A stretch of DNA of 64,000 nucleotides from Patescibacteria group bacterium (GCA_026415975.1 JAOAFZ010000002.1:49390-113389); one strand, 5' to 3'; counted from the stretch's first letter, positions 6,634 through 56,491 are shown. The notes: a model not told the origin generated them from the letters alone. Translations and numbers: made by a program.

Positions 6634-6634
6634 A

Positions 6635-23154: not shown

Positions 23155-23283
23155 ACGGTGGGAAAAATGCTTAATACATAATAACGGTACGTAGTATAGT
23201 ACCATACGCAGAGGAATTTGTGAAATCTGTCTTCATTCACTTCATCCTATGCACACAGAAGTTTGCGTGGGGAGGAATGCGGA

Positions 23284-26889: not shown

Positions 26890-28020
26890 TCATCTTTTTC
26901 GATGGTGCCACCACCACAGAATCCCTGCACCTGCACCCACAACCAAAAGAACAAGAACTACAGGAAAATACTCCACCCGTCTTTCTACAATCAGTGTCAG
27001 CTCTGGAGCTTGGTCCTCTGCTGAAAGTGCGACTGTCTTGCTTCCAGTAAAACCGTTATCATTCACAGCAAACTCTTCGGTTGTTCCGGTTACTGGCAGG
27101 CGGACAATACCCTTATCGTTTGTTGTTCCTTCCGAGCGGCTGGTTGTGGCCCGTACCAAAACTCCCGCAACACCGCTACCCGTTTTGTCTCTAACCCAAA
27201 TCGTCACGGTGCGTTGTGCCTCTTTTTTTGAGCCTGCATCGTCTTTTGGATTTTTGGGAGCCTTCGTGATCGAGACGAGAGCGGGTTCCTCTGGGGTAGG
27301 TGTGGGCGTTGATGGTATCGGTGCCGAGAGCGCCAGGTTTCTGAAAGAAACCAGCGAGACTGTCTTAGCACTTATTTCGTTAGACCACGGACCGCTAGCG
27401 CACCCGTTTCCTGCTCGAATACGGAAGTAATACCTAGTGCTTGGCCACAGGTGCTCAACAAGATAGTTTCGGCTGCTTTGTCCTCCAATTGGCTCCGCGC
27501 CAAACTCTAGCCCTCCTTCTGTTGTTCCGTATGCGAGCACATAGTGGGTAAGCGGGGGATCTGCTTCTGCAAAGTAGAGCCGGATTGCAGTTGGCGATTC
27601 AGAAATAGCGGAGTAAATCCAGGGAGCTTTTGCACCGGGTGCTTGGCGTTGGCAAACGGGTGGCGCTGGCATTTCTGCCGTGCCTGCTCCAGTGCCTATT
27701 GACGGAGGCGACGCCCCAATTGTGGGAGTAGCAGATGGTGCAGGTGGAGGAGTTTCTGTGGGAGTTGGTGTGTTCGTTGGTGCTAATGCGGGCTCGTACA
27801 ATCCAAACGCCGAGAACTCTGTTGTTGCGCACGTTACCGAATTTTGCACTGCATTTACGACACAGTCTGCTAGCTCATTAAAAGCTGAACCGTTCCACCG
27901 GTACATGGATAGCTCAGATTCACTAACACCAGCGATATCAGTATCGGAGTACTTGAAGGTGATGCTCACTGGCTGATCGAAGGTGGTAATCTCACTGGTA
28001 ACACTGAGCTGGGCATTCAA
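26890..28020 (-). CDS. C-terminal part of the large surface protein (FN3, CarboxypepD_reg-like, C-terminal TM anchor), separated from the upstream ORF by a frameshift
   Basis: An FN3-like segment (STRYYFRIRAGNGCASGPWSNEISAKT), VTIWVRDKTGSGVAGVLV...GIVRLPV, and a terminal VVLVLLVVGAGAGILWWWHHRKR. This frame stays open upstream to 28092 (…TAVSSAIGKPAGLQDVGIAIYNLNAQLSV…), overlapping the end of the 1400-aa ORF. Confidence 0.6.
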   Translation of the reverse strand: MNAQLSVTSEITTFDQPVSITFKYSDTDIAGVSESELSMYRWNGSAFNELADCVVNAVQNSVTCATTEFSAFGLYEPALAPTNTPTPTETPPPAPSATPTIGASPPSIGTGAGTAEMPAPPVCQRQAPGAKAPWIYSAISESPTAIRLYFAEADPPLTHYVLAYGTTEGGLEFGAEPIGGQSSRNYLVEHLWPSTRYYFRIRAGNGCASGPWSNEISAKTVSLVSFRNLALSAPIPSTPTPTPEEPALVSITKAPKNPKDDAGSKKEAQRTVTIWVRDKTGSGVAGVLVRATTSRSEGTTNDKGIVRLPVTGTTEEFAVNDNGFTGSKTVALSAEDQAPELTLIVERRVEYFPVVLVLLVVGAGAGILWWWHHRKR

Positions 28021-34128: not shown

Positions 34129-34490
34129 GTACTTCCGAATGAAAAAAGTCAGTGTCCCCGCACACGATTTCTTCGATGATCAAGTCTTCATACACTCCTT
34201 CCCAATCTCTGTGTGTACGGGTCGGAAAGTTCTTCTTCGGACATGCGATGCCTTAAGAGGGCAAACCGGAAGTGGCCGTACTATATCTTGGGGTTTACTT
34301 CAACAACTCGGGAACGCAGATGCCGAGGAGAAACCAGCGAAGCTTGCAACCGTGGAAACTTTCTTTTATACACAACAGAAAAGAAAGAGTATAGGGAGTG
34401 CCATCTTTCGAGCGTTGCAGGTTGATTCTTTCGATGCTGTAGCTAAAATTAGTGTCGAATCGCCTCGATTTCTGATTTGGTACTGTTTTC

Positions 34491-35398
34491 TCACCCAATC
34501 AACATCCCGTCCGACACCCACCCCCGCAGCCGCTCCGGCAGTACTTCGTCTATCCTCCGCATATCCTCATCCACAATCTCAATCAGCGTCAGGCCATACT
34601 TTTGGTAGATCGCGACCTTCTCCTCCCGCCGTTCCGTGTACACCGGGTTATCCATTCCCCAGGCCTCGATATATACGTTGCCCTTGCCGCAATCGGGGAT
34701 CCAGAAGTCGCAGAAAAGGCATTCGGCTACCGGAACCCGCCGTTCGTACCCATGGCAGATCCGGTTGCGGAAGAGCCAGTCGTCGATAATCTGCTCCATG
34801 CGGCTGCGGACAATGTGCCCGTCGGTACAATAGATGTCCGGGCGGGGAAGTCTGCTAGTGGGGAGGTGCAGATCGCACTCTGTGTTTGTGGTTTCCGGAA
34901 GCGGGCGTTGCAGGTGCTGCTGCCGGAACACGGCAAAGAGTTTGGTGCAGGCCTCACCGGAGATCTGAGTATGGGGGTATTCGCCGGTGTCGGTGCGGGT
35001 AAAGGGAACGATGTTTTGCAGGTGGTCGCGGTGAATGCGCCGGTACGAGCTGGTAGGCTGTATGCGTACCTGCACGGGAAGCCGGCCGCCCCAGGCATCC
35101 GGCTCAAATTCCCACTGTACCCCTGAGGCGGCTACGAAGGGCCCCAGGAACTCGTGGGTGGAGTAGTTGTACAGAAAAAGCGAGTTCCCGGGCTGAACGC
35201 CATCAACAAAGTGATAGCTGCAGCCATGCCAAAGAGGTTGCGATCCAGGCATTCCGCCTCGGACTGAGCGTTGCAGCAGAAGATATAGGCATGGTCGGGA
35301 AGAGTTTGATCGAGTAGGGGGGCTGTGTCGGCAGCAGCGGGTATCCCGGGAGTGCTCCCTGGGAACTTATCCTGAGAAGTTTGTGCTGGTATTTGCAT
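34491..35398 (-). pseudogene. DCD (PUA-like) domain fused to a PD-(D/E)XK-type nuclease domain; one frameshift near 35200-35230
   Basis: ORF 35132-35398 gives HAYIFCCNAQSEAECLDRNLFG. ORF 34491-35252 continues in another frame with SYHFVDGVQPGNSLFLYNYSTHEFLGPFVAASGVQWEFEPDAWGGRLPVQVRIQP. Together they closely match the plant-type DCD consensus (IFxCNxxTxxECxxxxLFGLP...PGxxLFLxNYxxxxLxGxFxAxSxG...P.QV). The C-terminus VRSRMEQIIDDWLFRNRICHGYERRV...CDFWIPDCGKGNVYIEAWG...YQKYGLTLIEI resembles the nuclease module found at the N-termini of HelD/Rep-like helicases. Confidence 0.65.
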
Positions 35399-37291: not shown

Positions 37292-39451
37292 ATGCCACTT
37301 GAACTAGGGAGCGCAAACCCCGACCCGGAAATCGAGGCGTGCAACGTCGTTTGCTCAGCTCACGCACGTATTAAAGAAATGCTAGAGCAAGTTGAGGAAC
37401 GCCAACAACAGCTTTTGCTATTACAGGTACAAGCTGCCGGATTTACCCTAAATCGCCTTGCGGAAATCACTAGTCAAGAAGAGTATGAAAAATATATTGC
37501 AGAGCGTCTTACCTTGGCACAACAGGTTTCAGTCGCAAGGGAACTGACCGATCTTGAGAGTATGAAAGGAGTGCTTTTAGGGGGTGGCAACCTTGATGTC
37601 GAATTAGTAGCGATGACGAATAACATGATACAACGAATCGCAGTAAGCGGCCAACTCGCTGGTACTCCAGAATATATTCGCGCAGTTCTGGAGGGTTTAC
37701 GTAATACTGCCGCACTCCGGTTACGGCAAAATGCAGAACAGCAAGGAGGTGCCGGGTCGCTGCTCCCGGGGCAAGCGCGAATATTGGAGCGTGGTTTCGA
37801 GAGGGTAGCTCAGCTAAATGCGGGAGAGCTGTCCCCAATGCAACTCGAGTGCGTGCTGCAACGACCAGATGTCACCACACTCCTCGAAGCCGCACCCTAC
37901 CTGTTGCTGCAATACCGAACCCCAGGGGAAGGGGAGCATCGGGAGTTAAGTCTGGTTATCAGTCGAGAACAGGGGGGAGAAAACAAAGCGTATCGTAACG
38001 ATAGCAAAATTATCCTCGCCGGCCGCGCTATTGAAATTCCTTTCGAAACTGCCCCGACACATGAGCGTCAGCTCGAAGAATTTTCACGGCGCCTCAGGGG
38101 CTTTGTTAATGTTGCGCAAGTATATTTCCGTAATGGTTTTGAACCCGCAGGAGGGCTCGAAAAGGTATTACGTGAGCAGGCAAAAATATTGGCTGATTTC
38201 GGATACAGTGTTACGTTGATTGGGGGAAATCCACCTAACGAAATGTACGGTCGGGAATTGTTGGAATTATTTCAGCATATTGTAATTGATGGAGCTCATG
38301 AACGCCACCCAACTGCACTGGAAATTGCACGAAAAATGGAAAGTGGTAGCGTGCCGGACAAGTATCAGGAGCATTATGACTACCTATTAAATCAACTCAA
38401 AGATGCGTTAAAACATATGCATATCTGGATCGCGCACAATCCTCATGTTCCGCGCAACCCGCCTTTTACCGCCGCATTACTCGAACTCTGGCGGAATCGA
38501 GAGGCACATAAGCTAAAAAACGCAAGAAAGCTCGCCCTTTGGGTGCATGATGTCGGGCCCGTTATGGAACCCCATAAGTTTCCACCACTAGACGAGTACG
38601 GTCGCTATCCCGAACCCTGGGACTCAACTTTCAACCAGAAACTTAAGGGTCCCGATGTAACCTACTTCTGCGTCTCGAAAAAAGTAGCTGATCAGGTGGG
38701 GAATATTCCACTTCCTCCCGGAAAAGATGAAGCTACATTCCGTGCCCCAGATATCGTTACGATACATCACGGACACGATGTTGAGGCAATGATTAGTCCA
38801 TACCATGAACTCGTAAGGAGAATCATACCGTATATCCGTCGTGACCGTTTTAAGAATGTTATCTTGCAAACAGGCCGTATCGGAGATAGGAAGTGCCAGC
38901 ACCGAAGCATTACAGCATTACGATTTCTGGAAGATACTCAGTTAATTATTACTGGAGCACCAAAGATGACTAATGGCGTCATAGACGACCAATATTGGGA
39001 TTACATCAAGAAGTTAGCAAAATATTTTGACGTGGAAGACCGGATCGTATTTGTTTACGATATCGTTGGACCAATCCCTGACGGCGGAGTCTATGAAAAA
39101 GTGACAGGGCAGCTAGCCCATTTATCCGAAGTCGTAGTAGTACCGTCCAGCTCTGAGGGATTTGGTATCGATGCGGCGAATTTAGCAGGAGTACGTATAC
39201 CAATTGTCGCAACCGACGATCCTGCCTTGAAAGAGGAAAATCTGGGAGATTATGCAACATACGTTCCTACGACAGCCGATGGCATCGAATTGGCGACAGT
39301 GATCGCAACAGTATTGAAAAAACCGGAAGTGAGTCGGCGACGGGAGATTCTTGCGCGGGACTGGAGGGGTCAGATGGAACGTGCGCTCCAGTATCTGGGA
39401 GATTCGAATGGACAGGTGTTTGAGCCTAATAGCGAAAGCGGATATAGTTAA
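37292..39451 (+). CDS. two-part protein: an unknown N-terminal region of about 270 aa plus a GT4-type (GT-B) glycosyltransferase
   Basis: The GT-B N-half starts near VNVAQVYFRNGFEPAGGLEKVLREQAKILADFGYSVTLI. The C-half is VVVVPSSSEGFGIDAANLAGVRIPIVATD (E-x7-E-type motif). TATACT sits 9 nt upstream. Confidence 0.7.
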   Translation: MPLELGSANPDPEIEACNVVCSAHARIKEMLEQVEERQQQLLLLQVQAAGFTLNRLAEITSQEEYEKYIAERLTLAQQVSVARELTDLESMKGVLLGGGNLDVELVAMTNNMIQRIAVSGQLAGTPEYIRAVLEGLRNTAALRLRQNAEQQGGAGSLLPGQARILERGFERVAQLNAGELSPMQLECVLQRPDVTTLLEAAPYLLLQYRTPGEGEHRELSLVISREQGGENKAYRNDSKIILAGRAIEIPFETAPTHERQLEEFSRRLRGFVNVAQVYFRNGFEPAGGLEKVLREQAKILADFGYSVTLIGGNPPNEMYGRELLELFQHIVIDGAHERHPTALEIARKMESGSVPDKYQEHYDYLLNQLKDALKHMHIWIAHNPHVPRNPPFTAALLELWRNREAHKLKNARKLALWVHDVGPVMEPHKFPPLDEYGRYPEPWDSTFNQKLKGPDVTYFCVSKKVADQVGNIPLPPGKDEATFRAPDIVTIHHGHDVEAMISPYHELVRRIIPYIRRDRFKNVILQTGRIGDRKCQHRSITALRFLEDTQLIITGAPKMTNGVIDDQYWDYIKKLAKYFDVEDRIVFVYDIVGPIPDGGVYEKVTGQLAHLSEVVVVPSSSEGFGIDAANLAGVRIPIVATDDPALKEENLGDYATYVPTTADGIELATVIATVLKKPEVSRRREILARDWRGQMERALQYLGDSNGQVFEPNSESGYS

Positions 39452-39496
39452 AGAATCTATCGTGGCATTCGAGCTGAAAGCCTTGGCAACAGTATG

Positions 39497-39536
39497 TTGT
39501 ATCACAAGATACAACAGAACACCGCGGGAACCCGCG
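39497..39536 (+). terminator. two adjacent hairpins after the stop at 39451 (possible attenuator or terminator)
   Basis: TTGTATC-acaa-GATACAA (39497-39514) and CGCGGG-aa-CCCGCG (39523-39536). No U-tract follows, so function is uncertain. Confidence 0.25.
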
Positions 39537-39580
39537 ACACCACGCGATTATTAGATTACAATTTAAATAATAAATAAATA

Positions 39581-40954
39581 ATGGCTACTATCGCTTTTTT
39601 ACATAACGCACTAGGTAAAACAGATGGTGTTTCTCTTGAAGTGGATAAATGGCGCTACGTGCTTGAAACAAAGATGAAGCACAACGTGCTCTATTGTGCC
39701 GGTAACGATGATGTAAGCCATGTTCATTGTGTACCGGAGTTGTCGTTCATGCATCCCCGATCAGAGAAAATTTTACGCAATGCTACCGTCCAGTTAAAAG
39801 ACTTTACCGAAACCGAACTGAAAGAGGAGATTTTTAAACTGAAAGATATTATTAAAACAAAGTTGCTCGCATTCATTAGAAAGCATAAGATCGATCTACT
39901 CATTCCGAATAACCTCCTTTCGGTCGGCTACCACATTCCTGCCTTAATCGCGCTGCACGAGATTATCACCGAAACCAAGATACCGACGATAGCACATAAC
40001 CATGATTTTTATTTCGAAGCCAGTGGCGAGGTGAATCCCACCTGTAAGACCGTCTGGAATCTACTTGATTTATACACTCCGGTACGAGGAAAAAATGTGC
40101 AGAATATCACTATTAACCGTATCGCCCAAGCGGAGCTTTTTGCACGAACCGGCGTAAAAGCACAAGTCGTTCCAAACGTATTTGATTTCAAGCAACCAGC
40201 CTGGAAAGAAGACGCGTACAATGCGGATTTCAGAAAATCTTTTGACATTGGTGAAAACGACATCGTGTTGTTACAAGCAACCCGTATCATGTTGCGCAAA
40301 GGCATAGAAAACGCGATTGACATCGTTGCGGAAATGAATACCCCCGAGAATCGGAGGAGACTGCTGGAACGGAAGTTGTACAACGGCAAACAATTCACGA
40401 AAGACAGTAGAATAATCCTCCTATGTGCCGGTCGCCGTGAGATTTTCGGCACGACTGATACCTATTACAACGGGTTACTGGATCGTGCAAAAAGACAGAA
40501 CGTAGCTATCCGGTTTGCGGGTGAATACGTTAAACATAGTCGTGGTAAGAAAAACGGGAAGAAAGTATATTCATTATGGGACAGCTATGTGCACTCAGAT
40601 TTCGTTTCTTATCCAAGCTGGTGGGAAGGATGGGGTAATCAACTAATTGAAGCAGTCTTTGCACGACTTCCTGTTGTTTTGTATGAATACCCGGTTTATA
40701 AATCGGACATTGCCCGTTCACATCTGGAAGTCGTCTCACTCGGTGACAAGATCTCCTCAATTGACAAAAACGGCCTAGTTAGTATAGACCGCGCAATAGT
40801 ACAGCGTGCTGCCGCGGAGATAGTATCAATCCTTACCGATCCCGCACGATACTCACACATAACAGAGAAAAATTTCCGCATCTGCGCGAAACGGTATTCC
40901 TATGAGGTCCTTGAAGCATTGATTCGTAAGATTATGAAGAAAATCGGAATGTAA
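39581..40954 (+). CDS. GT4-type glycosyltransferase
   Basis: The N-terminus IAFLHNALGKTDGVSLEV, and the C-half DFVSYPSWWEGWGNQLIEAVFARLPVVLYEYPVY, which is the GT-B EX7E region. Confidence 0.7.
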   Translation: MATIAFLHNALGKTDGVSLEVDKWRYVLETKMKHNVLYCAGNDDVSHVHCVPELSFMHPRSEKILRNATVQLKDFTETELKEEIFKLKDIIKTKLLAFIRKHKIDLLIPNNLLSVGYHIPALIALHEIITETKIPTIAHNHDFYFEASGEVNPTCKTVWNLLDLYTPVRGKNVQNITINRIAQAELFARTGVKAQVVPNVFDFKQPAWKEDAYNADFRKSFDIGENDIVLLQATRIMLRKGIENAIDIVAEMNTPENRRRLLERKLYNGKQFTKDSRIILLCAGRREIFGTTDTYYNGLLDRAKRQNVAIRFAGEYVKHSRGKKNGKKVYSLWDSYVHSDFVSYPSWWEGWGNQLIEAVFARLPVVLYEYPVYKSDIARSHLEVVSLGDKISSIDKNGLVSIDRAIVQRAAAEIVSILTDPARYSHITEKNFRICAKRYSYEVLEALIRKIMKKIGM

Positions 40955-45552: not shown

Positions 45553-46326
45553 TCACCGAACCCCTGCCGCGGGGACATCGGTGATCAACATTACACGGGG
45601 ATGCCAGACCAGGTAGGATGCAGGCATCTCCGGTTCCGGTTCGATACACGATCGCAACATCTCGATCACCCGCCGCTTCGCCGCGCCACTGGCTAAAAGG
45701 AGAATCTCCCGCGCTTCCAGGACCGTCGCGATGCCCATCGATATCGCCTGCGCCGGCACGCGTGACGTATCACCGCCAAAATATTTCGCGTTATCCTGAC
45801 GAGTGGATTCGGCAAGCGTGACCACCCGTGTCCGGGAAGTACCGTCCGATCCGGGCTCGTTAAATCCGATATGGCCGTTGGTGCCGATGCCGAGAATTTG
45901 AAGATCAATTCCACCTATTGCGGCAATTCGTTCCTCATACGACCTAGCCTCCCCCTCCGGATCGCTGGCGGCACCGTTTGGGATCAGGAACTGGGTTTCC
46001 GGACGTACCTCGGGGTGGCTCTCAGTAAGCGGTTTCCAGAAGTGTTCAGTCATGTAGTGGTGGTAACTTTCCGAATCTTTTGCGGTCAAACCTACATACT
46101 CATCTAGATTCACGGTGTGGAACCGCGACAGATTTCCCCCGAACCCGCGGAGCGAATCGACGAGCCGTGCGTACATCCCTTCCGGTGTGGCACCGGTCGC
46201 CATACCCAGTACGAACGACTTACCGGTATAGGCTGCCCGGGCTATCTGCTCGAAGACGAGAGCTGCGGCTAATCGGGACAGGATATCGTAATCCGGACAC
46301 ACCGTAATAGGCATGGACTGCGGCAT
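45553..46326 (-). CDS. nagB: glucosamine-6-phosphate deaminase
   Basis: VLGMATGATPEGMY and LQILGIGTNGHIGFNEPGS are characteristic NagB motifs. Confidence 0.8.
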   Translation of the reverse strand: MPQSMPITVCPDYDILSRLAAALVFEQIARAAYTGKSFVLGMATGATPEGMYARLVDSLRGFGGNLSRFHTVNLDEYVGLTAKDSESYHHYMTEHFWKPLTESHPEVRPETQFLIPNGAASDPEGEARSYEERIAAIGGIDLQILGIGTNGHIGFNEPGSDGTSRTRVVTLAESTRQDNAKYFGGDTSRVPAQAISMGIATVLEAREILLLASGAAKRRVIEMLRSCIEPEPEMPASYLVWHPRVMLITDVPAAGVR

Positions 46327-46432: not shown

Positions 46433-47137
46433 ATGTCAATCTCCGAAATTCGCGGTAAAACGATTGTAGCGATCTTCGCTCATCCGGATGACGAAGCTTT
46501 TTGTACGGGCGGTACGCTGGCACTCCTCGCAAAAACCAACATCGTGTATCTAATTACCGCGACTAACGGGGAAGCGGCAACCGATAACTTTAGTCCAGTA
46601 AAGGATAAGTCGCTTGCAGAGATCCGTCGCGACGAGGTGCAGACATCTGCCCGGGTGCTTGGTATCCAGGAAGTCTTCTTCCTAAATCTCCCCGATGGCC
46701 AGTTGAATAACATGCTCTATGGAACTGCGGTTGCCAAAGCATCAGAAGTCATCAAGCACCTCGACCCGCATATACTAATTACCTTCGAGCACCACGGACT
46801 CACCGGACATATAGATCATGTGTTCATAACCCGGGTTGCCAATTCGCTCTACGAATCTACGGAAACAATCGAGCAGATCTGGTACTTCTGCTTCGAGAAA
46901 CACGTTCGCGAGCATCTGATGCAGTACTATCGCCACAAAAACTTCGACGTTTACTTTCCGAAAGGGTATGCCGAAGACGAAGTTGAGCTTGTTGTAGACG
47001 TGTCAAGTACCTGGGAACAGAAGATGCAGTCTATCTACGCCCATGCATCGCAAAAAGCTGATTTGGGAGCGTACCTCAAGTCGTACGAGTATTCAAAGCA
47101 GAAGGAATTTTACTTTGTCCGGCGGAAGGGAAGTTGA
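46433..47137 (+). CDS. PIG-L/LmbE-family N-acetylglucosaminyl deacetylase
   Basis: VAIFAHPDDEAFCTGGTLA and GHIDH are metal-ligand motifs. Confidence 0.85.
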   Translation: MSISEIRGKTIVAIFAHPDDEAFCTGGTLALLAKTNIVYLITATNGEAATDNFSPVKDKSLAEIRRDEVQTSARVLGIQEVFFLNLPDGQLNNMLYGTAVAKASEVIKHLDPHILITFEHHGLTGHIDHVFITRVANSLYESTETIEQIWYFCFEKHVREHLMQYYRHKNFDVYFPKGYAEDEVELVVDVSSTWEQKMQSIYAHASQKADLGAYLKSYEYSKQKEFYFVRRKGS

Positions 47138-47180: not shown

Positions 47181-48704
47181 ATGGCACAACACGAACGTAC
47201 GGTTGGATTACATACCGGTATTAGGCAGGAAAGCGCAGCCGCATTCCGCGTTCCTCCTGATAAACTGGCCGCGTCCGGCGGCGGCAGTGCCACCGGAGGT
47301 GCCGCGCCCGCAACCGTTTCCATGGCGGAAGCATTTGCTCTCCACGCAGAGGAGGTGCTTGCAAATGAAGGATATCACTACGGCGTTGATGTTCTTCTGG
47401 ATACACCATACCCCTACCGTGGCTACGATCCGGCGGAAGCAGGGTTTCCAGAGAACATGCGGACCTTTATGTACGGACTCCCGCGCCATCGCAACGGAAG
47501 CCCCGCTTCCTACGATGATATGATTCGCATGTATAAGCGAAGAGCCGCGCAGATGGCTGCTATGAAAGCGGAATTCCGTGCAATGGTAAGCCGTGGGCCT
47601 ACCTTCAGCCTGGGGCATTTCTATGTCGATCTCGCCGTCCGGCGTCACGTCCTGGCTGAGCTGGCGCAATACGGACCAGTAATACCGCAGTATGGTGCGT
47701 TCCACTCTGCACTTGCCGACCAAATCAAGCTAGAAAGTCCGGGACTCTATGCGGCTCTGGTAGAATCCGGAAATTTAACCAGAAGACGGATTCAGGCAGA
47801 GCGAGTCCTAATCGCTTCCAATATTACGATGTTTTCCACTGAAGCGGAGCGCCAGATGACCATCCAGGCACTCACCGGGAAGAAGGTAAACGGAAGGATA
47901 TTAACAACAGAGTATTTGGAAGCACGAACGCTAGTAGTACCGCTTACCATAGATTCGGATCAGTTTTCACCGGAGGACCCAATGCAGCCAAACCGGAAAC
48001 GGAACGAACAGCGCAAAGCGTTTCTGGGAGAGTATGGAATTGCCTTAGAAGATTTCGTTATCGGCGGGGTAATGCGACTGGACGCTGAAAAAGGATACGA
48101 TGAATTTGCCAGGGGATTTATCGAGTTTCTTGAAGAATTTGAAAACCTTTACAGAGATCCAACTTCGCGACCTCGTGTTCCAAAGCTGTTTATCGCCGGA
48201 GGAGTTCCGAATAAACCAGGTATGCAGGAAAAGTATGAGGCATTGCTAAAGCGAATCAGAGAGTTCGAAGAATCTCACCCTAAATACCAGGGTCACATTA
48301 TAATTCCTAATACTGCATTCCATCATGGAAAGATAGCAAATGCCTTTGATTGGTTGGTGGGTCCTTCACTTTCGGAAACGTTTCACCTAGCACCGAAAGA
48401 GGCAAATGCCGCAGGAGTTCCTGTTGCTCTTACTAATATCGCTGCCCATCATGAAACCCATGGTCATAGCGCAATATACTTCGATCTTGTGAAGGAGGAT
48501 CGAAATGGCGTATTCACACCCGATACCCAGTCAATCATTGAGGTTATTCAGCGTATGCTTGATCCGCAGATCAGGGATTACTATGCAAAAGCCGGGATCA
48601 TCAACTCCCAACGGTTCTCGAAGCACGCTGTAGCGGAACTGCTCGTCAAAGACATGCTTTCCCGGTATCCGCACCAGTTTGAGCATAGTCAGACCTGGCA
48701 GTAA
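47181..48704 (+). CDS. GT-B (GT4-like) glycosyltransferase with a long N-terminal region
   Basis: The C-half GPSLSETFHLAPKEANAAGVPVALTNIAAHHE. I chose the start at ATG 47181 (MAQHERT), because the ORF-track start overlaps the upstream gene. Confidence 0.55.
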   Translation: MAQHERTVGLHTGIRQESAAAFRVPPDKLAASGGGSATGGAAPATVSMAEAFALHAEEVLANEGYHYGVDVLLDTPYPYRGYDPAEAGFPENMRTFMYGLPRHRNGSPASYDDMIRMYKRRAAQMAAMKAEFRAMVSRGPTFSLGHFYVDLAVRRHVLAELAQYGPVIPQYGAFHSALADQIKLESPGLYAALVESGNLTRRRIQAERVLIASNITMFSTEAERQMTIQALTGKKVNGRILTTEYLEARTLVVPLTIDSDQFSPEDPMQPNRKRNEQRKAFLGEYGIALEDFVIGGVMRLDAEKGYDEFARGFIEFLEEFENLYRDPTSRPRVPKLFIAGGVPNKPGMQEKYEALLKRIREFEESHPKYQGHIIIPNTAFHHGKIANAFDWLVGPSLSETFHLAPKEANAAGVPVALTNIAAHHETHGHSAIYFDLVKEDRNGVFTPDTQSIIEVIQRMLDPQIRDYYAKAGIINSQRFSKHAVAELLVKDMLSRYPHQFEHSQTWQ

Positions 48705-48769: not shown

Positions 48770-51079
48770 ATGTCTCAGCTTATCGATCAGGCATTTCAAC
48801 TCGCCCTCGAAAATTTACAGAAGAACCGGACCAAATTCGGCCTGGTAGCATCCCGCTCCGTCAACACCGATGATAAGCCGCCATACGATTATCTCTTTCC
48901 CCGCGATACCGGGGTAAGCGTATTCGGGCTCATGTTCTCCGATGATCCGGAGATGCTGGAACTGGCCCGCGTATCCATCGAGTCGCTGGCGATTGCGCAA
49001 TCGGACAAAGGACAGTTTCCACAGAGCTACCGGTTGGACAGCAACCGACCAGAGTGGTGGCATCCGGGTACGGTGGACAGCACGCTCTGGTGGTCTATCG
49101 CGCTGCTGAAATACTTCGAGAAAACGGGGGACCGCGCGTTTTTTAATTCGCATCGCGAACGGCTAGAGCGCGCGTTTACCTGGCTCACTTACCAAGACAC
49201 CAACAACGACAGCCTACTAGAACAAGGCGAAGCCGCTGGCTGGGACGATGAGTTTCCGCGTCATGGGACGGTGCTGTATACCAACGCCTTATGGTACTGG
49301 TTGGTTCGACTGCGCGTTGAGGTCGAGGGCAGAGAGGAACTTAAGGTACTTCAGGATAAAATCCGGGAGGGTGTAAATACCTTCTTGTGGGTTCACAAAG
49401 GAGACGACCACACCCGTAACTACTTCCCCGAAAACGATTACACCCGCAACACGTTTTTTTCGTTCCGCCTGATGGAATGGGTGAACGCGCAGGCCGTCGT
49501 GCTGCCGTATTACCTGGGCTATGTGTCTCACCTCTCGTTCGAGATGCGCTGCGATGTGTACGGGAATATCCTGGCATGCCTTTCTGGGCTTGCTGACGAC
49601 AAACGCAAACGCCTTATCGTAGACTTTATCTTCCGCGCCGGGATCAACGTGCCGTTCCCAGTGAAGGTGCTGTATCCGCCGATCTACCCAGGTGAAAACG
49701 ACTGGCGGCCGTATATGAGCAAAGGGCGGCAGAACTACCCGTGGCAGTACCATAACGGCGGTATCTGGCCGTACGTGGGCGGTTTCTGGGTGGTACTGCT
49801 GGCGCAGATGGGCCACCCGAAAGCGCATGAAGAGCTGGAAAAGCTGGCAAAAGCAGCTAGTCTGAATGACTGGGAGTTCAACGAGTACCTGCACGGCCAG
49901 AACGGTACTCCGATGGGGATGACGTTCCAGACTTGGAATATGGCAATGTACGTGGCGGCGTACAAGGCCGTTTCGCATACCAAAGCCGAGCAGCAGACGG
50001 TTCCGGTGGTGTCAATGGACGAGCTTACCGAAATCCGCGACCGCCTGACCGATGCCCTGCGGGCCGGTGCGGAGGGCCGGGAAACCGCACTACCCTTTAT
50101 CCGCCAGCAGATGCCGGACGGACCGGTGGTGCAGAAGGACGAGACGTTTCAGGTGATCGTGATCGGGGGGAGCGTGTACAAAAACGTGCTGATGCGCAAG
50201 CTCGAGGGCTATTCGATGATCGATCATCTGGAGGAGGGGAATCTGCCGACGCTCGATACGAAGGAGGGGTTCCTGGAGTTTGTGGGTAGCCTGGCTGACC
50301 GGAACGTAAACGCGATAGCAATCAATTTCGCGCACGCAATCGGGAGTACTCTGCGCAACGGACTGGTAGACGGCAAACTGCTTTTCGGAGCAAAGGAACA
50401 TACTCTTACCGGATTGGAAGGGAAATTCGTCGGAGAAACCATCGAACAGTACCTGGCGGAAACCCAACACCGCACCGTACGCGTTTCGGTGGCAAATGAT
50501 ACCGTGTGTCTGCTCCTGTCCAGCCTGCGGCGCTACGAGTGGAATCGGTCTGCCTGCGGCATAGTTGGTACCGGATTGAACTTCGCCATGTTTGCCGACG
50601 CACAAACAGCGATAAATCTGGAATCGGGGGAGTTCGGCGACTTTCCGCTGTCGGAAGCGGCGAAACTCGTGGATGAACGCTCCGCGAACCCCGGCAGCGG
50701 CTTACTTGAGAAAGAAATCGCCGGAGCCTACCTGTATCAGGCATACAACATCTACGCCGAACGGCTGGGTGTTGCCGGAGCACCGCTTACGGCAACCCGC
50801 GAGCTGGATAAAATCGCAACTGACCCGAATCATCCCGGACACCAGATTGCGCTGGCACTGCTGGAACGTTCGGCAGCTCTGGTAGCGGCTCAGGTGGCGG
50901 CAATCATGGCATACCATGATTGCGATATTGTATTTAACATGCTGGGCAGCCTGTTCTGGAAGGCCTCCGGCTACGAGGCGCACGTGGAAAAGTACACTGC
51001 CGCGCTCTCGTCGCACCGCGCCTCTTTCGTGAGCATTATGAACTCGGAGGTATATGGCGCAGCGCAGCTTGTCGCGTAA
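48770..51079 (+). CDS. fusion protein: an (alpha/alpha)6 glycoside hydrolase (GH100 invertase / GDE_C-like) plus a hexokinase-family kinase
   Basis: The N-half has YDYLFPRDTGVSVFGL, GTVDSTLWWSIALLKYFEKTGD, GGIWPYVGGFWV and EFNEYLHG..GTPMG...QTWNMAMY. The C-half has FQVIVIGGSVYK (phosphate-1), INFAHAI, VANDTVCLL, CGIVGTGLNFAMF, NLESGEF, LEKEIAGAYL and MLGSLFW...VYGAAQLVA, in the same order as canonical hexokinase motifs. Confidence 0.75.
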   Translation: MSQLIDQAFQLALENLQKNRTKFGLVASRSVNTDDKPPYDYLFPRDTGVSVFGLMFSDDPEMLELARVSIESLAIAQSDKGQFPQSYRLDSNRPEWWHPGTVDSTLWWSIALLKYFEKTGDRAFFNSHRERLERAFTWLTYQDTNNDSLLEQGEAAGWDDEFPRHGTVLYTNALWYWLVRLRVEVEGREELKVLQDKIREGVNTFLWVHKGDDHTRNYFPENDYTRNTFFSFRLMEWVNAQAVVLPYYLGYVSHLSFEMRCDVYGNILACLSGLADDKRKRLIVDFIFRAGINVPFPVKVLYPPIYPGENDWRPYMSKGRQNYPWQYHNGGIWPYVGGFWVVLLAQMGHPKAHEELEKLAKAASLNDWEFNEYLHGQNGTPMGMTFQTWNMAMYVAAYKAVSHTKAEQQTVPVVSMDELTEIRDRLTDALRAGAEGRETALPFIRQQMPDGPVVQKDETFQVIVIGGSVYKNVLMRKLEGYSMIDHLEEGNLPTLDTKEGFLEFVGSLADRNVNAIAINFAHAIGSTLRNGLVDGKLLFGAKEHTLTGLEGKFVGETIEQYLAETQHRTVRVSVANDTVCLLLSSLRRYEWNRSACGIVGTGLNFAMFADAQTAINLESGEFGDFPLSEAAKLVDERSANPGSGLLEKEIAGAYLYQAYNIYAERLGVAGAPLTATRELDKIATDPNHPGHQIALALLERSAALVAAQVAAIMAYHDCDIVFNMLGSLFWKASGYEAHVEKYTAALSSHRASFVSIMNSEVYGAAQLVA

Positions 51080-51209: not shown

Positions 51210-52970
51210 ATGTGCGGAATTTTTGCCTACACGGGCCCGGATGCAACCGCCGGTGCAATAGTTCTGGAGGGACTTAAGTCGCTTGAGTACCGGGGCTACG
51301 ACTCGTGGGGTGTCGCGATCCGCACAGCTGACGGAACGATTTCGGTAATCAAACACACCGGCAAGATAGGGTCCGCCAAGCTCCCGCATATCGTCTCCCA
51401 TACGGCACTCGGGCATACCCGCTGGGCTACCCACGGCGGCGTCACGCAGGCCAATGCACACCCCCATCTCTCCTCTGACGGAAAAATCGTTCTGGTGCAT
51501 AACGGCATTGTAGAGAATTACCAGACGCTGAAACGAGAATTGCAGGAGCTCGGCTACGCGTTTCGCTCCGAAACCGACTCCGAAGTAATCGCACATCTGA
51601 TCGCTGAAACCCGGAAGTCTGTGTCCGACCCGGTCGCTTGTGTGCGCACCGCTTTCGAGCGGTTAATCGGAATGAACGGGGTGGTCTGCTATTTTGCCGA
51701 CGACGACACCTTTGTAGCGGTAAAGAACGGCTCGCCGCTGGTGTTTGCCCGGGCGGGAAAGGCCCGCCTCCTGGCCTCGGATCCGGCCGCACTGGCACCA
51801 CATTCCCGCGAAGTACTATTTCTGGAAGACGGTGATTGCATCGCAATCAGCCCTGACGGGGACACCTACTACGGAGCAGATGGTATGAAAAAACAGATGG
51901 TATTCCAGCTTCTAGACTTCGATCCGGAGGATGCACAACTGAATGGCTTTCCGCACTTCATGCTCAAAGAAATCCACGAACAGCCTGAATTGATCCGGAG
52001 GATTACAGAGGCTCAGGAAGAAGCCGTCAAGAAAGCCGCCGTCATGATCCGGGAATCCTATGGAACTTATCTGGTGGGCTGCGGCACGGCCTCCTATGCA
52101 GCACTGGCCGGCACCTACCTGTTCTCAAAAATCGCGGGCCGGCATGTGAACTTCTCGATCGCGTCGGAGTTCGCGTATCTCACGCAGTTTATCAGGGAGC
52201 GGTCGCTCGTGGTACCGCTCTCGCAGTCGGGGGAGACCATAGACGTTATCGATGGCGTTCGCGACGCGAAGATGCGAAAAGCACGGATAATGACCATCAC
52301 GAATGTGCAAGGGTCTTCACTTTTCCGCATGGCAGACTATGCGCTGCTTCTCGGGGCCGGACCGGAAAAAGCGGTCTGTTCCACAAAAGCCTTTACCGCA
52401 AAAGTAGCACTGCTCTTGCTGATCGCCCACGAACTTGCCGGCAATCGGGAGAGAGGGCAGGAAACACTAAAGCAGGCTGCGGCCGCTGTTGCCGACGTAC
52501 TGGACCGCAAAGATGAGCTTCGAGCACTGGCAGAGCGTATGCACCACCGGGACCACCTGTTTGTGCTGGGACGGGGTGTTTCGTATCCGGTGGCACTGGA
52601 GTCGGCCCTCAAGATCAAGGAAGTATCGTATATCCACGCCGAGGGATTTGCGGCGGGAGAACTCAAACACGGGGTTATTGCCCTGATCGAACAGGGGACA
52701 CCGGTACTTATTTACAACCCCGACGACGAAACCTACCATGACACGCTCTCGGCAGCACACGAAGTAAAGGCACGGGGTGCTTATGTGATCGGCGTTTCGA
52801 GCAGGAACTCGGATGTCTACGATGCATATTTTCACATAGATGACTGCGCAGATGCAACGATCATTCCCAACGTGGTGGTTGCCCAGTTCTTGGGGTATTA
52901 TCTGGCCGTCCTGAAAGGCTTTGATCCCGATAAACCACGAAACCTTGCCAAAAGTGTTACGGTAAAATAA
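51210..52970 (+). CDS. glmS: glutamine--fructose-6-phosphate aminotransferase
   Basis: MCGIFAY (N-terminal nucleophile Cys), GHTRWATHG, two SIS domains, and a C-terminal ...AKSVTVK. Confidence 0.95.
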   Translation: MCGIFAYTGPDATAGAIVLEGLKSLEYRGYDSWGVAIRTADGTISVIKHTGKIGSAKLPHIVSHTALGHTRWATHGGVTQANAHPHLSSDGKIVLVHNGIVENYQTLKRELQELGYAFRSETDSEVIAHLIAETRKSVSDPVACVRTAFERLIGMNGVVCYFADDDTFVAVKNGSPLVFARAGKARLLASDPAALAPHSREVLFLEDGDCIAISPDGDTYYGADGMKKQMVFQLLDFDPEDAQLNGFPHFMLKEIHEQPELIRRITEAQEEAVKKAAVMIRESYGTYLVGCGTASYAALAGTYLFSKIAGRHVNFSIASEFAYLTQFIRERSLVVPLSQSGETIDVIDGVRDAKMRKARIMTITNVQGSSLFRMADYALLLGAGPEKAVCSTKAFTAKVALLLLIAHELAGNRERGQETLKQAAAAVADVLDRKDELRALAERMHHRDHLFVLGRGVSYPVALESALKIKEVSYIHAEGFAAGELKHGVIALIEQGTPVLIYNPDDETYHDTLSAAHEVKARGAYVIGVSSRNSDVYDAYFHIDDCADATIIPNVVVAQFLGYYLAVLKGFDPDKPRNLAKSVTVK

Positions 52971-52973
52971 GAA

Positions 52974-54053
52974 ATGCCACCTCTTGCTATCCCCGACATT
53001 ATCCAGATGCGCGATGCGTTCGTTGAAGAAATGAAGCTCGCCGCCAAAGGCCAGAAAACCAGCATTCCGTTCATAAAACAGCGTATCGCCGAACACCCGG
53101 CGGTTGCGGAAGGCGAAACGTTCCAGGTGCTCATTATCGGCGGTTCCGTGTACAAATGGTCACTGGCACAACGCAGTGGCAGCACAGTGAGCTTTGATGA
53201 CCAAACCCAGGGAGCGCTTCCGGCGTTTAACGATCGGACCACCTTTCTTAACTTCATACTGGGGTTGATTTCCCCGGAAGTTTCCTCGGTGGCTATGAAT
53301 ATAGCCTACGCTCTTACGCCGACATTTCGGAACGGGCTCATGGACGGTGTACTGCTCTGGGGGTCCAAAGAGCACTCGTTTACCGGACTTATCGGTGTAG
53401 ATATCGGGAAAGCAATCGAGGACCATGCCGCGGCCGCAGGTAGAACGATCCGGGTAGCGGTGGCCAACGATACGATCTGCCTCCTACTCTCCGGCCGAGA
53501 CGAGTATCCGTGGAACGCATTTGCCTGTGGAATCGCCGGCACCGGACTCAACTTTGCGCTTTTTTCCGATCCTGTTACCGCGGTGAATCTACAATCGGGA
53601 GAGTTCGATAAACTCGAACTTACCCCGGAGGCTACAGAACTAGATTCCCAAAGCCAGGTGCCCGGGAGCGCCCTCCTGGAAAAGGAAACTGCTGGGGCGT
53701 ACCTGTTCCGCAAGTATCAGATCGGTCTGAAACAGCGGGGAATCGAGGCGCCGGCGATAAACTCTACAGCTGAACTTGATGGTATCGCAGCTGACGAATC
53801 ACACCCCGGCAGTGCACTCGCCAGGGAGATCCTGGAATACTCCGCAGCCCTTGTTGCCATGCAGGCGAGTGCCCTTGCCGAGTTCCAGGGGGGCAATCTG
53901 ACAGTACGAGTGGCCGGAGGCCTGTTCTGGAACGGCTATGGATACCGGGAAACTGCCGAACGTGTGGTACGCCAGCTTTCGCCGCAACGGCAGATCCGGT
54001 TCGTCGGAAGTGAATTGGCCGAACGGGTGGGGACGGCAAAACTGGTGTCATAA
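52974..54053 (+). CDS. hexokinase-family sugar kinase (stand-alone paralogue 2)
   Basis: FQVLIIGGSVYK, MNIAYAL, VANDTICLL, CGIAGTGLNFALF, NLQSGEF, LEKETAGAYL and GGLFW...VGTAKLVS are collinear with the C-half of 48770-51079. Confidence 0.75.
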   Translation: MPPLAIPDIIQMRDAFVEEMKLAAKGQKTSIPFIKQRIAEHPAVAEGETFQVLIIGGSVYKWSLAQRSGSTVSFDDQTQGALPAFNDRTTFLNFILGLISPEVSSVAMNIAYALTPTFRNGLMDGVLLWGSKEHSFTGLIGVDIGKAIEDHAAAAGRTIRVAVANDTICLLLSGRDEYPWNAFACGIAGTGLNFALFSDPVTAVNLQSGEFDKLELTPEATELDSQSQVPGSALLEKETAGAYLFRKYQIGLKQRGIEAPAINSTAELDGIAADESHPGSALAREILEYSAALVAMQASALAEFQGGNLTVRVAGGLFWNGYGYRETAERVVRQLSPQRQIRFVGSELAERVGTAKLVS

Positions 54054-54067: not shown

Positions 54068-55153
54068 ATGGAGATAAGTGAACTTCGGAAAATAACCGAT
54101 GCGTTTGTTGAAGAACTGGACATGGCACAACGAGGCAATAAAACCAGTTTACCCTTCATTGTAAATCAGTTTCCGGATCATCCGCTCGTTCCCGAACACG
54201 ATGATTTTCTTGTTCTGGTGATTGGTGGCACCATCTTCCAGGTTGCTCGGTGCCGGAAAGAACATGGCCAGATACTTATTCTCCGGAAACGTGCCGGAGA
54301 GCTTGTGGCTTTTTCCAACAAAGATACATTTCTGAGATTTGTGGAGGAACTGATTCCCGATGATGTCAAATATGTCGCAGTAAATTTTGCCTACCCTCTC
54401 AGTCCGCTGTTTAAGAAAAACAAGCTCGATGGAATCCTTATCTCCGGCACCAAGGAGCATACGTTTGATGGGCTGGTTGGTTTGGTGGTAGGTGACACAA
54501 TTGAAGCCTATCTAAAAGAAAAACGTGGCCAGGTAGTCACTGTAAGTACCGCAAATGACACTATTTGTGAGTTACTTTCAGGAGTATCCAAAGCAAGTCG
54601 TCCGGAATTTCTTGCATGTGGCATAGTCGGAACCGGCGTAAACTTTGCTTTCTTTATGGATTCACATCATGCGGTGAATCTGGAAGCAGCAAACTTTAAC
54701 AAGTTTCCTCAAAGTAAATACGGGAAAAAAATTGACGAACACTCCCAGCATCCCAATCAAGCTCTATTTGAAAAAGAAACATCCGGTGGATACTTATTTC
54801 AGCATATGAATCTGTTTTCCGAGGAACACGGACTTGATCTGAAACTTAAGTCATCGAAAGAACTGGATGACTATGCCAAGAAATGCGAAGTTGCGACCGA
54901 GGGAGATGCTTGTGCCTTTGCCTGGGAATTACTCGACCGCTCAGCCGGACTAGTTGCGTGTCAGATTGCTGGGATAACCAGGTATAAAGCGGCAGACATG
55001 ATATTTATCATGGCCGGAAGCCTATTTTGGAAAGCCTTTAATTATAAGGAAAGCGTATCTAAGTACGTAAAAATACTTGTGCCTGAGTATAACGTTACGT
55101 TTATCACTATAGAGAACTGTGAGATCTATGGTGCTGCCCGACTGGTCGCCTGA
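54068..55153 (+). CDS. hexokinase-family sugar kinase (stand-alone paralogue 3, visibly more AT-rich)
   Basis: FLVLVIGGTIFQ, VNFAYPL, TANDTICELL, CGIVGTGVNFAFF, NLEAANF, FEKETSGGYL and AGSLFW...IYGAARLVA. Confidence 0.75.
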   Translation: MEISELRKITDAFVEELDMAQRGNKTSLPFIVNQFPDHPLVPEHDDFLVLVIGGTIFQVARCRKEHGQILILRKRAGELVAFSNKDTFLRFVEELIPDDVKYVAVNFAYPLSPLFKKNKLDGILISGTKEHTFDGLVGLVVGDTIEAYLKEKRGQVVTVSTANDTICELLSGVSKASRPEFLACGIVGTGVNFAFFMDSHHAVNLEAANFNKFPQSKYGKKIDEHSQHPNQALFEKETSGGYLFQHMNLFSEEHGLDLKLKSSKELDDYAKKCEVATEGDACAFAWELLDRSAGLVACQIAGITRYKAADMIFIMAGSLFWKAFNYKESVSKYVKILVPEYNVTFITIENCEIYGAARLVA

Positions 55154-55204: not shown

Positions 55205-56491
55205 ATGCGCAAAGTCCGGGATCTCCTTAAAAGCCCCACCAGTCAGTCTATTGCTGTAAATACACTTGGTAATTATCTTAATGTCGGCTTTACAGCGCTT
55301 TTTACCCTGGTCCTTTTTCGTATTCTCTCACCGGCGGAATATGGGGTGTATAGCGTTCTCATAACCGTTTCATATGTTATGGCAACGATACTGGACTTCG
55401 GCAGTACCGCAACGATCTACTCATACCTCCCGCCGCTACTGGAAGATAAGGGACGGCCGTTATTCCGGTTCGTCAAGAGTGCCTTCTACTACCAGTCGAT
55501 CCTTTCGTGTATCGTCGTTCTTGCGTTGCTGATACTTTTCCCTGTAATAGACACACAATTTTTAAAGACCGGCGCGTCGTATCTGGAAATGGCACTTACC
55601 GCAATTGCTACCCTCTTTTTTATCTGGCAGAACTTTATTCTTAACCTCTACTTTGCCTCGAAACAGTTTTTCAAGGCAAACCTTTACCTGAATATTGCAA
55701 ATATTGTCAAGACAATCGCCATTGGCGTTGCCTTTATTACCGGAACGCTGTCTATAGCCTCCCTGATCTTTATTCTGGGTATCTTCGGGTGTGCGGTGTT
55801 CTACGGACTGGTGCTCTTCGACCGCCGGAACGATATTCACCGCATTCTTTCCGCTGATGTTAAACGAAAAGAGTTCCGGTTCCGGTATGCGCTCACGTAC
55901 TTTATTGCGTCGCAGTTTCTTAATATCGGGCTACGAATGGATCTGTTTACCATCTCGTTTTTTAATACCGTCATCTCCCGTCCCGAGGTTGGATATTATG
56001 CAGCCGCACAGAAGATTATCCTGACGGTTCTTACCACCGTAATCAGTATTACCCAGGTGTTATCACCGGGCTTTTCAAATATTTCCACCCGTCGTGAAGC
56101 ACGCAAGCAGCTCCGTCACGGCCTGATATATATGCTTATTCCGAGCGCACTCTTTCTGGGAGTTACACTAACACCCGGGTTTATTTACGAATGGTTCTTT
56201 ACCAGTACGTTTTCGCCGTCCGCTGATATCGCCCGGGTGCTGAGCGTGCCGTTTGTCATTTATGCTTTGGGTAGCGTACCGATGCTGTTTCTGCTGTATA
56301 CGGTAAAAAAACCGAACTATATTTTGTTCGCCTATGTAACCTTCTTTGCAATTGTTACGGCGGGATGTCTGCTGCTCATCCCCTCGCTGCGGCTTATGGC
56401 ACCGGTGGTGTTATTTACCGTGGGCTTCCTGATCTCCAAGGGGATAATCGGGTACGCCTGTTACCGTGAATACCGTCGGTTGCCGCGCTGA
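55205..56491 (+). CDS. MOP/Wzx-type polysaccharide flippase
   Basis: A 428-aa protein with about 12 TM helices and the N-terminus typical of 'polysaccharide biosynthesis protein' flippases. Confidence 0.65.
   Translation: MRKVRDLLKSPTSQSIAVNTLGNYLNVGFTALFTLVLFRILSPAEYGVYSVLITVSYVMATILDFGSTATIYSYLPPLLEDKGRPLFRFVKSAFYYQSILSCIVVLALLILFPVIDTQFLKTGASYLEMALTAIATLFFIWQNFILNLYFASKQFFKANLYLNIANIVKTIAIGVAFITGTLSIASLIFILGIFGCAVFYGLVLFDRRNDIHRILSADVKRKEFRFRYALTYFIASQFLNIGLRMDLFTISFFNTVISRPEVGYYAAAQKIILTVLTTVISITQVLSPGFSNISTRREARKQLRHGLIYMLIPSALFLGVTLTPGFIYEWFFTSTFSPSADIARVLSVPFVIYALGSVPMLFLLYTVKKPNYILFAYVTFFAIVTAGCLLLIPSLRLMAPVVLFTVGFLISKGIIGYACYREYRRLPR

Follow-up and report, generated by a model that had tools for sequence, protein, structure and literature searches.

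Clan GH-G of the glycoside hydrolases (GH) includes the families GH37, GH63 and GH100. Its enzymes are anomer-inverting alpha-glucosidases with a common set of residues (acid Asp, base Glu, 'fixer' Asp and two Trp); the -1 glucose subsite is conserved and the +1 subsite variable (bioRxiv 10.64898/2026.07.01.735942). For the GH100 invertase InvA the catalytic residues were named as Asp188 and Glu414 (PMC6995568). GH100 genes of Patescibacteria have been listed in counts of carbohydrate-active enzymes only (PMC9868632). Hexokinase or glucokinase genes are found in very few genomes of the Candidate Phyla Radiation (CPR), for which an ancient lateral acquisition was suggested (Jaffe et al. 2020, PMC7304191). 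Here we analysed a stretch of 64,000 nucleotides from a Patescibacteria group bacterium (GCA_026415975.1, JAOAFZ010000002.1:49390-113389), referred to as the window in the following, in which a single open reading frame (ORF) joins a GH100-like glycosidase domain to a compact hexokinase-family domain. The ORF and its parts are:

48770-51079, plus strand: fusion ORF of 769 amino acids (aa), stop codon at 51077-51079
48770-49984, plus strand: N-domain, a clan GH-G-type glycosidase with (alpha/alpha)6 fold, residues 1-405 (Pfam, PDB profile, AlphaFold2 (AF2) and Foldseek)
49985-50014, plus strand: linker A406-S415 (AEQQTVPVVS), 10 residues (alignment with the related loci L001, L083 and L028)
50015-51076, plus strand: C-domain, compact hexokinase family, residues 416-769, beginning at M416

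An in-frame TGA stands directly 5' of the ATG of this ORF, and the frame is uninterrupted over all of its 769 codons, as had been claimed in an earlier note on this DNA. All motifs quoted there for the two halves were recovered in the same order. In the N-terminal half these are FPRD (43-46), VDSTLWW (102-108), GGIWP (330-334), NEYLH (371-375) and QTWN (387-390). The C-terminal half carries, from the small lobe onward, IGGS (465-468), NFAH (519-522), ANDT (575-578) and GTGLN (600-604), followed by NLES (616-619), LEKE (646-649), LGSLF (725-729) and YGAA (762-765). We consider it likely, with a probability of roughly 0.6, that the product is a cytoplasmic bifunctional enzyme which would hydrolyse an alpha-glucoside and then phosphorylate the freed hexose. 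What the comparisons establish is the identity of both domains, the conservation of their catalytic residues, that the fusion is real and how it arose, and that its gene neighbourhood has been kept. The cytoplasmic location is predicted because inspection of the sequence revealed no hydrophobic, signal-like stretch at the N-terminus. Of the four Pfam models that the earlier note had named, Glyco_hydro_100, GDE_C and Hexokinase_2 scored above their cut-offs, and Hexokinase_1 was below threshold.

The assignment of the N-terminal half to the (alpha/alpha)6 glycosidases held in hidden Markov model (HMM) searches, in profile comparisons with PDB and in structure prediction. Glyco_hydro_100 (PF12899) matched with 79.4 bits against a cut-off of 23.6, residues 233-399 aligning with positions 265-430 of the 435 in the model, and GDE_C matched with 39.4 bits against a cut-off of 21 over residues 44-391. 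In sequence and profile searches of PDB the top matches were GH100 invertases (InvA 5goo with an E-value of 1.9e-22, InvB 5z73 and Arabidopsis 6ttj), where the profile covered residues 31-396 with CINV1 and chiefly 253-396 with InvA at an identity of about 20%. The AF2 model, obtained with an alignment of 35 homologues, reached a predicted local distance difference test score (pLDDT) of 90 and a predicted template modelling score (pTM) of 0.92. GH100 structures (6ttj, 5goq, 5gop, 5z74) occupied all of the Foldseek ranks 1-28 at template modelling (TM) scores of 0.73-0.78 (best match about 0.77, E 1e-16), followed by GH176 and GH63. Assignments to GDE_C/GH176, i.e. to glycogen debranching, and to GH63 were considered and rejected, as both were weaker than GH100 in profile search and Foldseek; in the PDB searches a GH63 glucosylglycerate hydrolase from mycobacteria and a GH176 enzyme from an archaeon matched far more weakly.

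At the level of single residues, the candidate base E372 is invariant and aligns exactly with InvA Glu414. The candidate acid D160, also invariant, is located one residue off the position aligned with InvA Asp188 (D159), which implies a one-residue loop indel. D46, D103, W333 and W389 are further invariant positions in the alignments, the latter two matching the two conserved tryptophans of clan GH-G. By these comparisons it is very probable that the N-terminal half is catalytically active and would release glucose as an inverting alpha-glucosidase. With a +1 subsite that varies within the clan, the aglycone is not readable from the sequence and sucrose is only one candidate.

For the C-terminal half, membership in the hexokinase family withstood the same three kinds of test. 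The large-lobe model Hexokinase_2 (PF03727) scored 52.4 bits against a cut-off of 24, and a profile built from 27 homologues matched human hexokinase-2 (2nzt) in PDB over both lobes with an E-value of 1e-35. The AF2 model of the domain had a pLDDT of 94.4 and a pTM of 0.91. Eukaryotic hexokinases and glucokinases made up the entire Foldseek top 50 (TM 0.76-0.84), with no ROK, Glk or other ASKHA fold among them. The best match, human GCK (3f9m, E 4.5e-25), had a query-normalised TM score of 0.82; normalised to the target the score was just 0.67, because the C-domain is about 100 residues shorter than GCK.

Within an alignment of 222 family members the hexose-binding and catalytic set was conserved almost throughout: K542, D577 and N604 were found in all 222 sequences, N576 and E647 in 220 and E618 in 219. 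The GCK equivalents of this set are K169, N204, D205, N231, E256 and E290. D577 is the predicted catalytic base of the kinase domain, and T601 also belongs to the key residues. The phosphate-2 loop G600-T601-G602 and the adenosine motif G726-S727 were almost or wholly invariant.

Evidence for a genuine gene fusion comes from an orthologue. In a word-indexed search of 5.8 billion protein clusters a single other full-length fusion of this kind was found, P0002, with 786 aa and 56% identity. It is present in the assemblies JGI 3300045921 and Logan SRR30649435 (loci L001 and L002) and in the contig CAYPQF010000021 of a GTDB metagenome-assembled genome (MAG; L003). The two linkers are alike at the protein level (AEQQTVPVVS in the window, SEKEAVPPVS in P0002, 10 residues each), and the GC content at third codon positions (GC3) is even over the domain junction (0.69 and 0.68). 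As in the window, the P0002 locus carries a PIG-L gene and a GT4-type glycosyltransferase (GT) gene directly upstream of the fusion and NagB farther upstream. The neighbours of the fusion in the window are:

45553-46326, minus strand: NagB, glucosamine-6-phosphate deaminase (TIGR00502, 237.1 bits against a cut-off of 236.9; divergent, with synteny in relatives)
46433-47137, plus strand: PIG-L family de-N-acetylase, BshB/MshB-like (Pfam, 99.8 bits; NCBIfam matches below cut-off)
47181-48704, plus strand: GT4-type retaining glycosyltransferase of about 507 aa with EX7E motif (Pfam, alignment, PDB profile)
51210-52970, plus strand: GlmS, glutamine--fructose-6-phosphate transaminase (TIGR01135, 606 bits), immediately 3' of the fusion
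52974-54053, plus strand: HK2, standalone hexokinase-like paralogue of 359 aa that shares 43% identity with the fused kinase
54068-55153, plus strand: HK3, standalone hexokinase-like paralogue of 361 aa, 57% identical to the copy in locus L034 and orthologue of a widespread Microgenomates kinase
55205-56491, plus strand: Polysacc_synt (Wzx-type) flippase (Pfam), a conserved cassette member in relatives

The single ORF could also be an artefact of assembly or sequencing, i.e. a missed stop or a frameshift between adjacent genes. The loci L083 and L028 keep the two genes separate with overlapping stop and start codons, such that a one-base error could in principle merge them. Against this stand the 56%-identical fusion from independent samples and assemblers, the extra 10-residue linker that is conserved as protein next to the retained former start Met, and the uniform GC3 at the junction. 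The existence of orthologous fusions with a conserved linker makes an artefact very unlikely indeed, and the recurrence of fusion, linker and neighbours in independent assemblies bears out the earlier note, which had taken the ORF for one gene.

How the fusion arose can be traced in unfused relatives. In L083 a 408-aa GH100-like gene is directly followed by the gene for the kinase P0085, the two overlapping by 4 nt at ATGA (…ATATGAAC…). Among standalone kinases, P0085 is one of two that are most closely related to the fused one. The gene order of L083, i.e. NagB (minus strand), glycosidase, kinase, kinase, flippase, PMT_2 and photolyase, is syntenic with that of the window, i.e. NagB (minus strand), PIG-L, GT4, fusion, GlmS, HK2, HK3, flippase and photolyase. 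In L028 the glycosidase and kinase genes overlap by 17 nt. According to the alignment, M416 of the fusion is the former start Met of the kinase, which has been kept, and A406-S415 stand where the unfused relatives have their stop/start overlap. In a neighbour-joining tree the fused kinase is sister to the kinase of P0002, with HK2 in the same small clade, and HK3 groups with its widespread orthologue. The simplest history is thus a single fusion event in the common ancestor of the window and P0002 lineages by loss of the stop codon between translationally coupled genes. The same two genes are found fused in the window, in P0002 (L001, L002) and in L003, and separate in L083, L028, L022 and others. 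Such unfused Microgenomates pairs resemble the window in their orthologous genes, which stand in the same order beside NagB, flippase and photolyase. They differ in encoding two polypeptides, and many genomes reverse the order, with the kinase first, or place a GT gene in between.

Fusions of this kind are rare. When 1.84 billion representatives were searched exhaustively with phmmer, the 150 best matches included no additional GH100-hexokinase fusion, a scan of JGI metagenomes gave none, and L003 was the only one in a scan of the 185,579 species genomes of GTDB. One further candidate, L094, with a match extending to residue 430, was rejected, as it is in fact a glycosidase gene followed by NagB. 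Across the 5.8 billion protein clusters and the GTDB species genomes the architecture is thus confined to two lineages. A literature search turned up no account of proteins in which an invertase or a trehalase is fused to a hexokinase, in line with the earlier note, which was not aware of a characterisation of this architecture. Both domains belong to known families, each as a divergent CPR branch, and the pairing of a hydrolase with a kinase follows conventional logic; it is the fusion architecture that is undescribed.

A different fusion was detected by phmmer: P0215, a 776-aa metagenomic protein in which a trehalase (GH37, 263 bits) precedes a hexokinase half from the same CPR kinase family. 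It is encoded at 3438-5768 of L082 (Logan SRR22388089), with a standalone hexokinase paralogue after it at 6060-7151. Its position far from the window kinase in the tree indicates a second, independent fusion. P0215 thus parallels the window in having an N-terminal clan GH-G alpha-glucosidase, a C-terminal CPR-type hexokinase and a subsequent standalone kinase. It differs in that its glycosidase is GH37 rather than GH100-like and that its kinase occupies a distant branch; it is likewise uncharacterised. Both fusion partners are clan GH-G glucosidases that would free glucose, and no other indirect evidence speaks as strongly for the kinase acting on this glucose.

The kinase family itself is not scarce. 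More than 200 standalone homologues of about 357 aa were recovered, and those with an organism name came mostly from Candidatus Roizman-, Woese- and Levybacteria, i.e. CPR Microgenomates; the glycosidase scan added a Gottesmanbacteria genome. The source of the window is therefore probably a CPR bacterium of the Microgenomates group. The statement of the earlier note that hexokinase-family kinases are uncommon in bacteria does not apply within this lineage. Many of the MAG contigs among L003-L035 are titled 'uncultured Gammaproteobacteria bacterium' (binchicken and SRP co-assemblies), which is likely a placeholder or wrong taxonomy. We discounted these titles because the gene content matches that of the named Roizman-, Woese-, Gottesman- and Levybacteria genomes.

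The two families are also linked by their genomic location. In 21 of the 33 Microgenomates loci with a close glycosidase homologue, a hexokinase-like gene is encoded no more than 10 kb away; it often adjoins the glycosidase gene in either order or is separated from it only by a GT4 gene. No such neighbour was seen in any of about 45 loci with distant glycosidase homologues (Parcubacteria, Nitrospira, Geotalea, Burkholderiales). In related loci the glycosidase gene is usually followed by NagB and a Wzx-type flippase, with NagB often spaced by 0-4 nt. GlmS follows the fusion in the window and an unfused glycosidase in L034. The PIG-L gene is confined to the sub-clade nearest the window and is missing from most cassettes. 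Among the distant GH100-like homologues, P0060, P0071, P0076, P0079, P0262 and P0276 have an extra N-terminal domain, which is a sucrose-6F-phosphate-phosphohydrolase-like HAD domain in those checked, and the glycosidase copies of L072 and L074 (Beta-/Burkholderiales) are extended to 823 aa. The L074 copy adjoins a GT20 gene (trehalose-P/glucosylglycerol-P synthase-like), and the neighbours of the Nitrospira copy are uninformative. The HAD fusion and the GT20 neighbour point to turnover of compatible-solute-type glucosides, which is suggestive and not decisive.

Concerning the neighbours in the window, the mechanically called ORF of the GT4 begins at 47043 and overlaps the PIG-L gene, the likely start being the ATG at 47181. 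A single-sequence phmmer search of PDB with the GT4 gave no match, and a profile was needed. This profile matched MshA (3c4q, 3.2e-17) and sucrose-phosphate synthase (SPS; 2r60, 3.8e-17) equally well. The arrangement of PIG-L directly upstream of GT4 recalls the first steps of mycothiol and bacillithiol synthesis. With the fusion, HK2 and HK3, the locus holds three copies of the hexokinase-like domain. HK2 departs from the family by an exchange of E to Q at the conserved sugar-binding Glu (NLQSGEF) and of S to G in the adenosine motif (AGGLFW). HK3 has a clearly lower GC content (0.44, with a GC3 of 0.42) than its neighbours, in which the GC content is 0.55-0.58. A scan for promoters and terminators between 44 and 57 kb gave no signals above shuffled expectation.

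For the proposed bifunctional enzyme the following course can be envisaged. The N-domain would hydrolyse a small intracellular alpha-glucoside, e.g. a disaccharide or a glucosyl solute, with inversion and thereby free the hexose. This glucoside may be made by the MshA/SPS-like GT4 next to the fusion, or it may be imported. The kinase domain, tethered by the 10-residue linker, would phosphorylate the freed hexose at O6 and capture it as hexose-6-phosphate, which could feed the neighbouring GlmS/NagB step (fructose-6-phosphate <-> glucosamine-6-phosphate) and the surrounding glycan synthesis. The coupling of cleavage to phosphorylation, which the earlier note had put forward, obtains indirect support from the conserved gene neighbours, the translationally coupled unfused pair and the independent trehalase-hexokinase fusion. 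Sucrose, which it had named together with other glucosides for an assay, is one possible substrate only, and NagB, PIG-L, the MshA/SPS-like GT4 and GlmS point at least equally to hexosamine-linked metabolism.

A number of observations weigh against this assignment. On the side of the glycosidase, the Pfam match covers only the C-terminal 40% of the GH100 model (about 165 residues), the identity of the domain with characterised GH100 enzymes does not exceed about 20%, and the +1 subsite, which sets the aglycone, varies across the clan. On the side of the kinase, the small-lobe model Hexokinase_1 (PF00349) reaches 16.2 bits in the fused copy, below its cut-off of 24.3, with HK3 passing at 37.2 bits and HK2 borderline at 24.0. 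Furthermore, the phosphate-1 loop IVIGGSVYK of the earlier note needs to be qualified: its Gly-Gly-Ser is retained (G466-G467-S468), but the canonical hexokinase Asp (L-D-L-G-G-T) is replaced by V464 (codon 50159-50161). This Asp helps to hold Mg-ATP, and its mutation in human hexokinase I cuts kcat by orders of magnitude; a literature search gave no relevant mutagenesis paper. For both CPR families, glycosidase and kinase, the activity is a putative one assigned by comparison. Substrate, phosphoryl donor, catalysis by the kinase half and a kinetic gain from the fusion are our inferences, and channelling between the domains would be pure conjecture. Finally, the PIG-L, NagB and MshA-like GT4 neighbours agree equally well with an amino-sugar glycoside and with a glucoside.

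The last point leads to an alternative in which the locus runs an amino-sugar glycoside cycle: GT4 would make an alpha-GlcNAc-X, PIG-L would convert it by deacetylation to GlcN-X, the glycosidase would free glucosamine and the kinase would form GlcN-6-P, which NagB would turn into fructose-6-P and ammonia, with GlmS running the opposite way. The match of the GT4 profile to MshA as well as to SPS agrees with such a cycle, as do the BshB/MshB matches of PIG-L, the fact that NagB adjoins the glycosidase gene or stands immediately 3' of it in numerous loci of Microgenomates, and the position of GlmS after both fused and unfused glycosidases. Hexokinases in general accept glucosamine. Nevertheless we consider this cycle unlikely. 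The characterised enzymes of clan GH-G all bind glucose (or mannose) at -1, and the residues concerned are conserved here (bioRxiv 10.64898/2026.07.01.735942); the independent fusion partner of the kinase family is a glucose-releasing trehalase; PIG-L occurs in the sub-clade nearest the window only; and the adjacency of NagB and GlmS is equally explained by hexose-6-phosphate feeding hexosamine synthesis. A second alternative, motivated by the loss of the phosphate-1 Asp in the family, is that the hexokinase-like domain is not an ATP-dependent kinase and would serve as a sugar-binding or regulatory sensor of the glycosidase product, or use another donor or chemistry. At the Asp column V predominates in the 222 members (152), followed by A (16), S (16), T (11), I (9) and R (7), and neither D nor E is among these six commonest residues. 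The sub-threshold Hexokinase_1 score, the three paralogues in one locus and the further E to Q and S to G changes of HK2 point in the same direction, and plants and yeasts have hexokinase-like proteins that are not catalytic. All 222 members, however, keep the catalytic base D577, and the strong conservation of the Gly-rich phosphate-1 and phosphate-2 loops and of G726-S727 in these diverged sequences argues for a probable retention of nucleotide binding and catalysis. E543, a family-specific Glu beside the catalytic-site Lys that is Glu in 193 of the 222, could speculatively compensate for the lost Asp as a metal contact. In addition, glucokinase/hexokinase genes were reported for very few CPR genomes (PMC7304191), and in the genomes that carry it the present gene is the natural candidate for this role. 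We therefore judge a domain other than an ATP-dependent kinase to be quite improbable. In the most unusual reading the compact CPR hexokinase would work without the phosphate-1 Asp, by another metal/nucleotide arrangement or a non-ATP donor, and would form with the fused hydrolase the recycling arm of a hitherto unknown, CPR-specific cycle of small-molecule glycosides. In this cycle GT4 and PIG-L would build an (amino)sugar solute with an alpha linkage, or a compound resembling a thiol precursor, and hydrolase, kinase and NagB would dismantle it. This reading we hold to be a decidedly doubtful proposition.

Beyond the genes discussed, the window contains a glycan-biosynthesis island at 1-24000 and 37292-40954 with at least 8 GT2, several GT1/GT4 and a 951-aa methyltransferase-GT2 protein. 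The island includes a Wzm/Wzt-type ABC-2 transporter (6635-8133), a PfkB sugar kinase (5692-6633), a GDP-mannose 4,6-dehydratase (22177-23205) and epimerases. A 1400-aa DUF2341/Laminin_G_3/fn3 protein (28017-32219, minus strand) and an fn3/Big_1 protein (26890-28020, minus strand) are presumably surface proteins. In the P0002 locus L001 a 1607-aa DUF2341 protein is located between NagB and PIG-L as part of the wider synteny that has been kept. A 253-aa ORF (34491-35252, minus strand), which overlaps an opposite-strand ORF at 34139-34789, has a Pfam match to 'Development and cell death' (DCD) with 42.9 bits. The DCD family is mostly known from plants and is unusual in a bacterial genome.

Most CPR bacteria were reported to have no recognisable glucokinase or hexokinase (PMC7304191). 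The fusion acts as a Rosetta-stone link that ties more than 200 compact hexokinase-like proteins to alpha-glucoside hydrolases and gives both families a testable function, the freeing of a hexose in the cytoplasm and its immediate phosphorylation, beside the enzymes of hexosamine entry. As a clue to how sugars may enter CPR metabolism it is useful rather than paradigm-changing. Also of interest, for the mechanism of these kinases, is a hexokinase lineage without a catalytic-site Asp that has been regarded as universal for the family.

Compared with the known systems, the N-domain shares with the GH100 invertases (Anabaena InvA/InvB 5goo/5gop/5z74; Arabidopsis 6ttj) the single-domain (alpha/alpha)6 barrel, the Asp/Glu pair and the two platform Trp. 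Unlike these it is shorter (405 vs 460-550 aa), has a one-residue shift near the acid Asp, is covalently joined to a kinase and comes from CPR bacteria rather than from cyanobacteria or plants. The GH63 mannosylglycerate/glucosylglycerate hydrolases (4wvb, 5oi1) have the same clan fold and are second-tier structural matches to the N-domain. These compatible-solute hydrolases are cytoplasmic and recycle a self-made alpha-glycoside; they differ in their weaker matches (TM 0.62-0.65, profile E 1.7e-5) and in having no kinase fusion. With the eukaryotic hexokinases and glucokinase (GCK 3f9m, HK2 2nzt) the C-domain has in common the two-lobed ASKHA hexokinase fold, the catalytic Asp, the Lys/Asn/Glu sugar set, the phosphate-2 loop and the adenosine motif, whereas it is only about 355 aa long, about 18% identical and has Val at the phosphate-1 Asp position, where the six commonest residues of the family are all non-acidic. 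The trapping of a freed sugar as its 6-phosphate by a linked kinase follows the same logic as in GNE (UDP-GlcNAc 2-epimerase/ManNAc kinase) and in the cscA-cscK operons. GNE joins a ROK-type kinase to an epimerase, and csc comprises a separate GH32 invertase and a PfkB fructokinase; these families are unrelated to those of the window fusion, and the likeness is one of principle.

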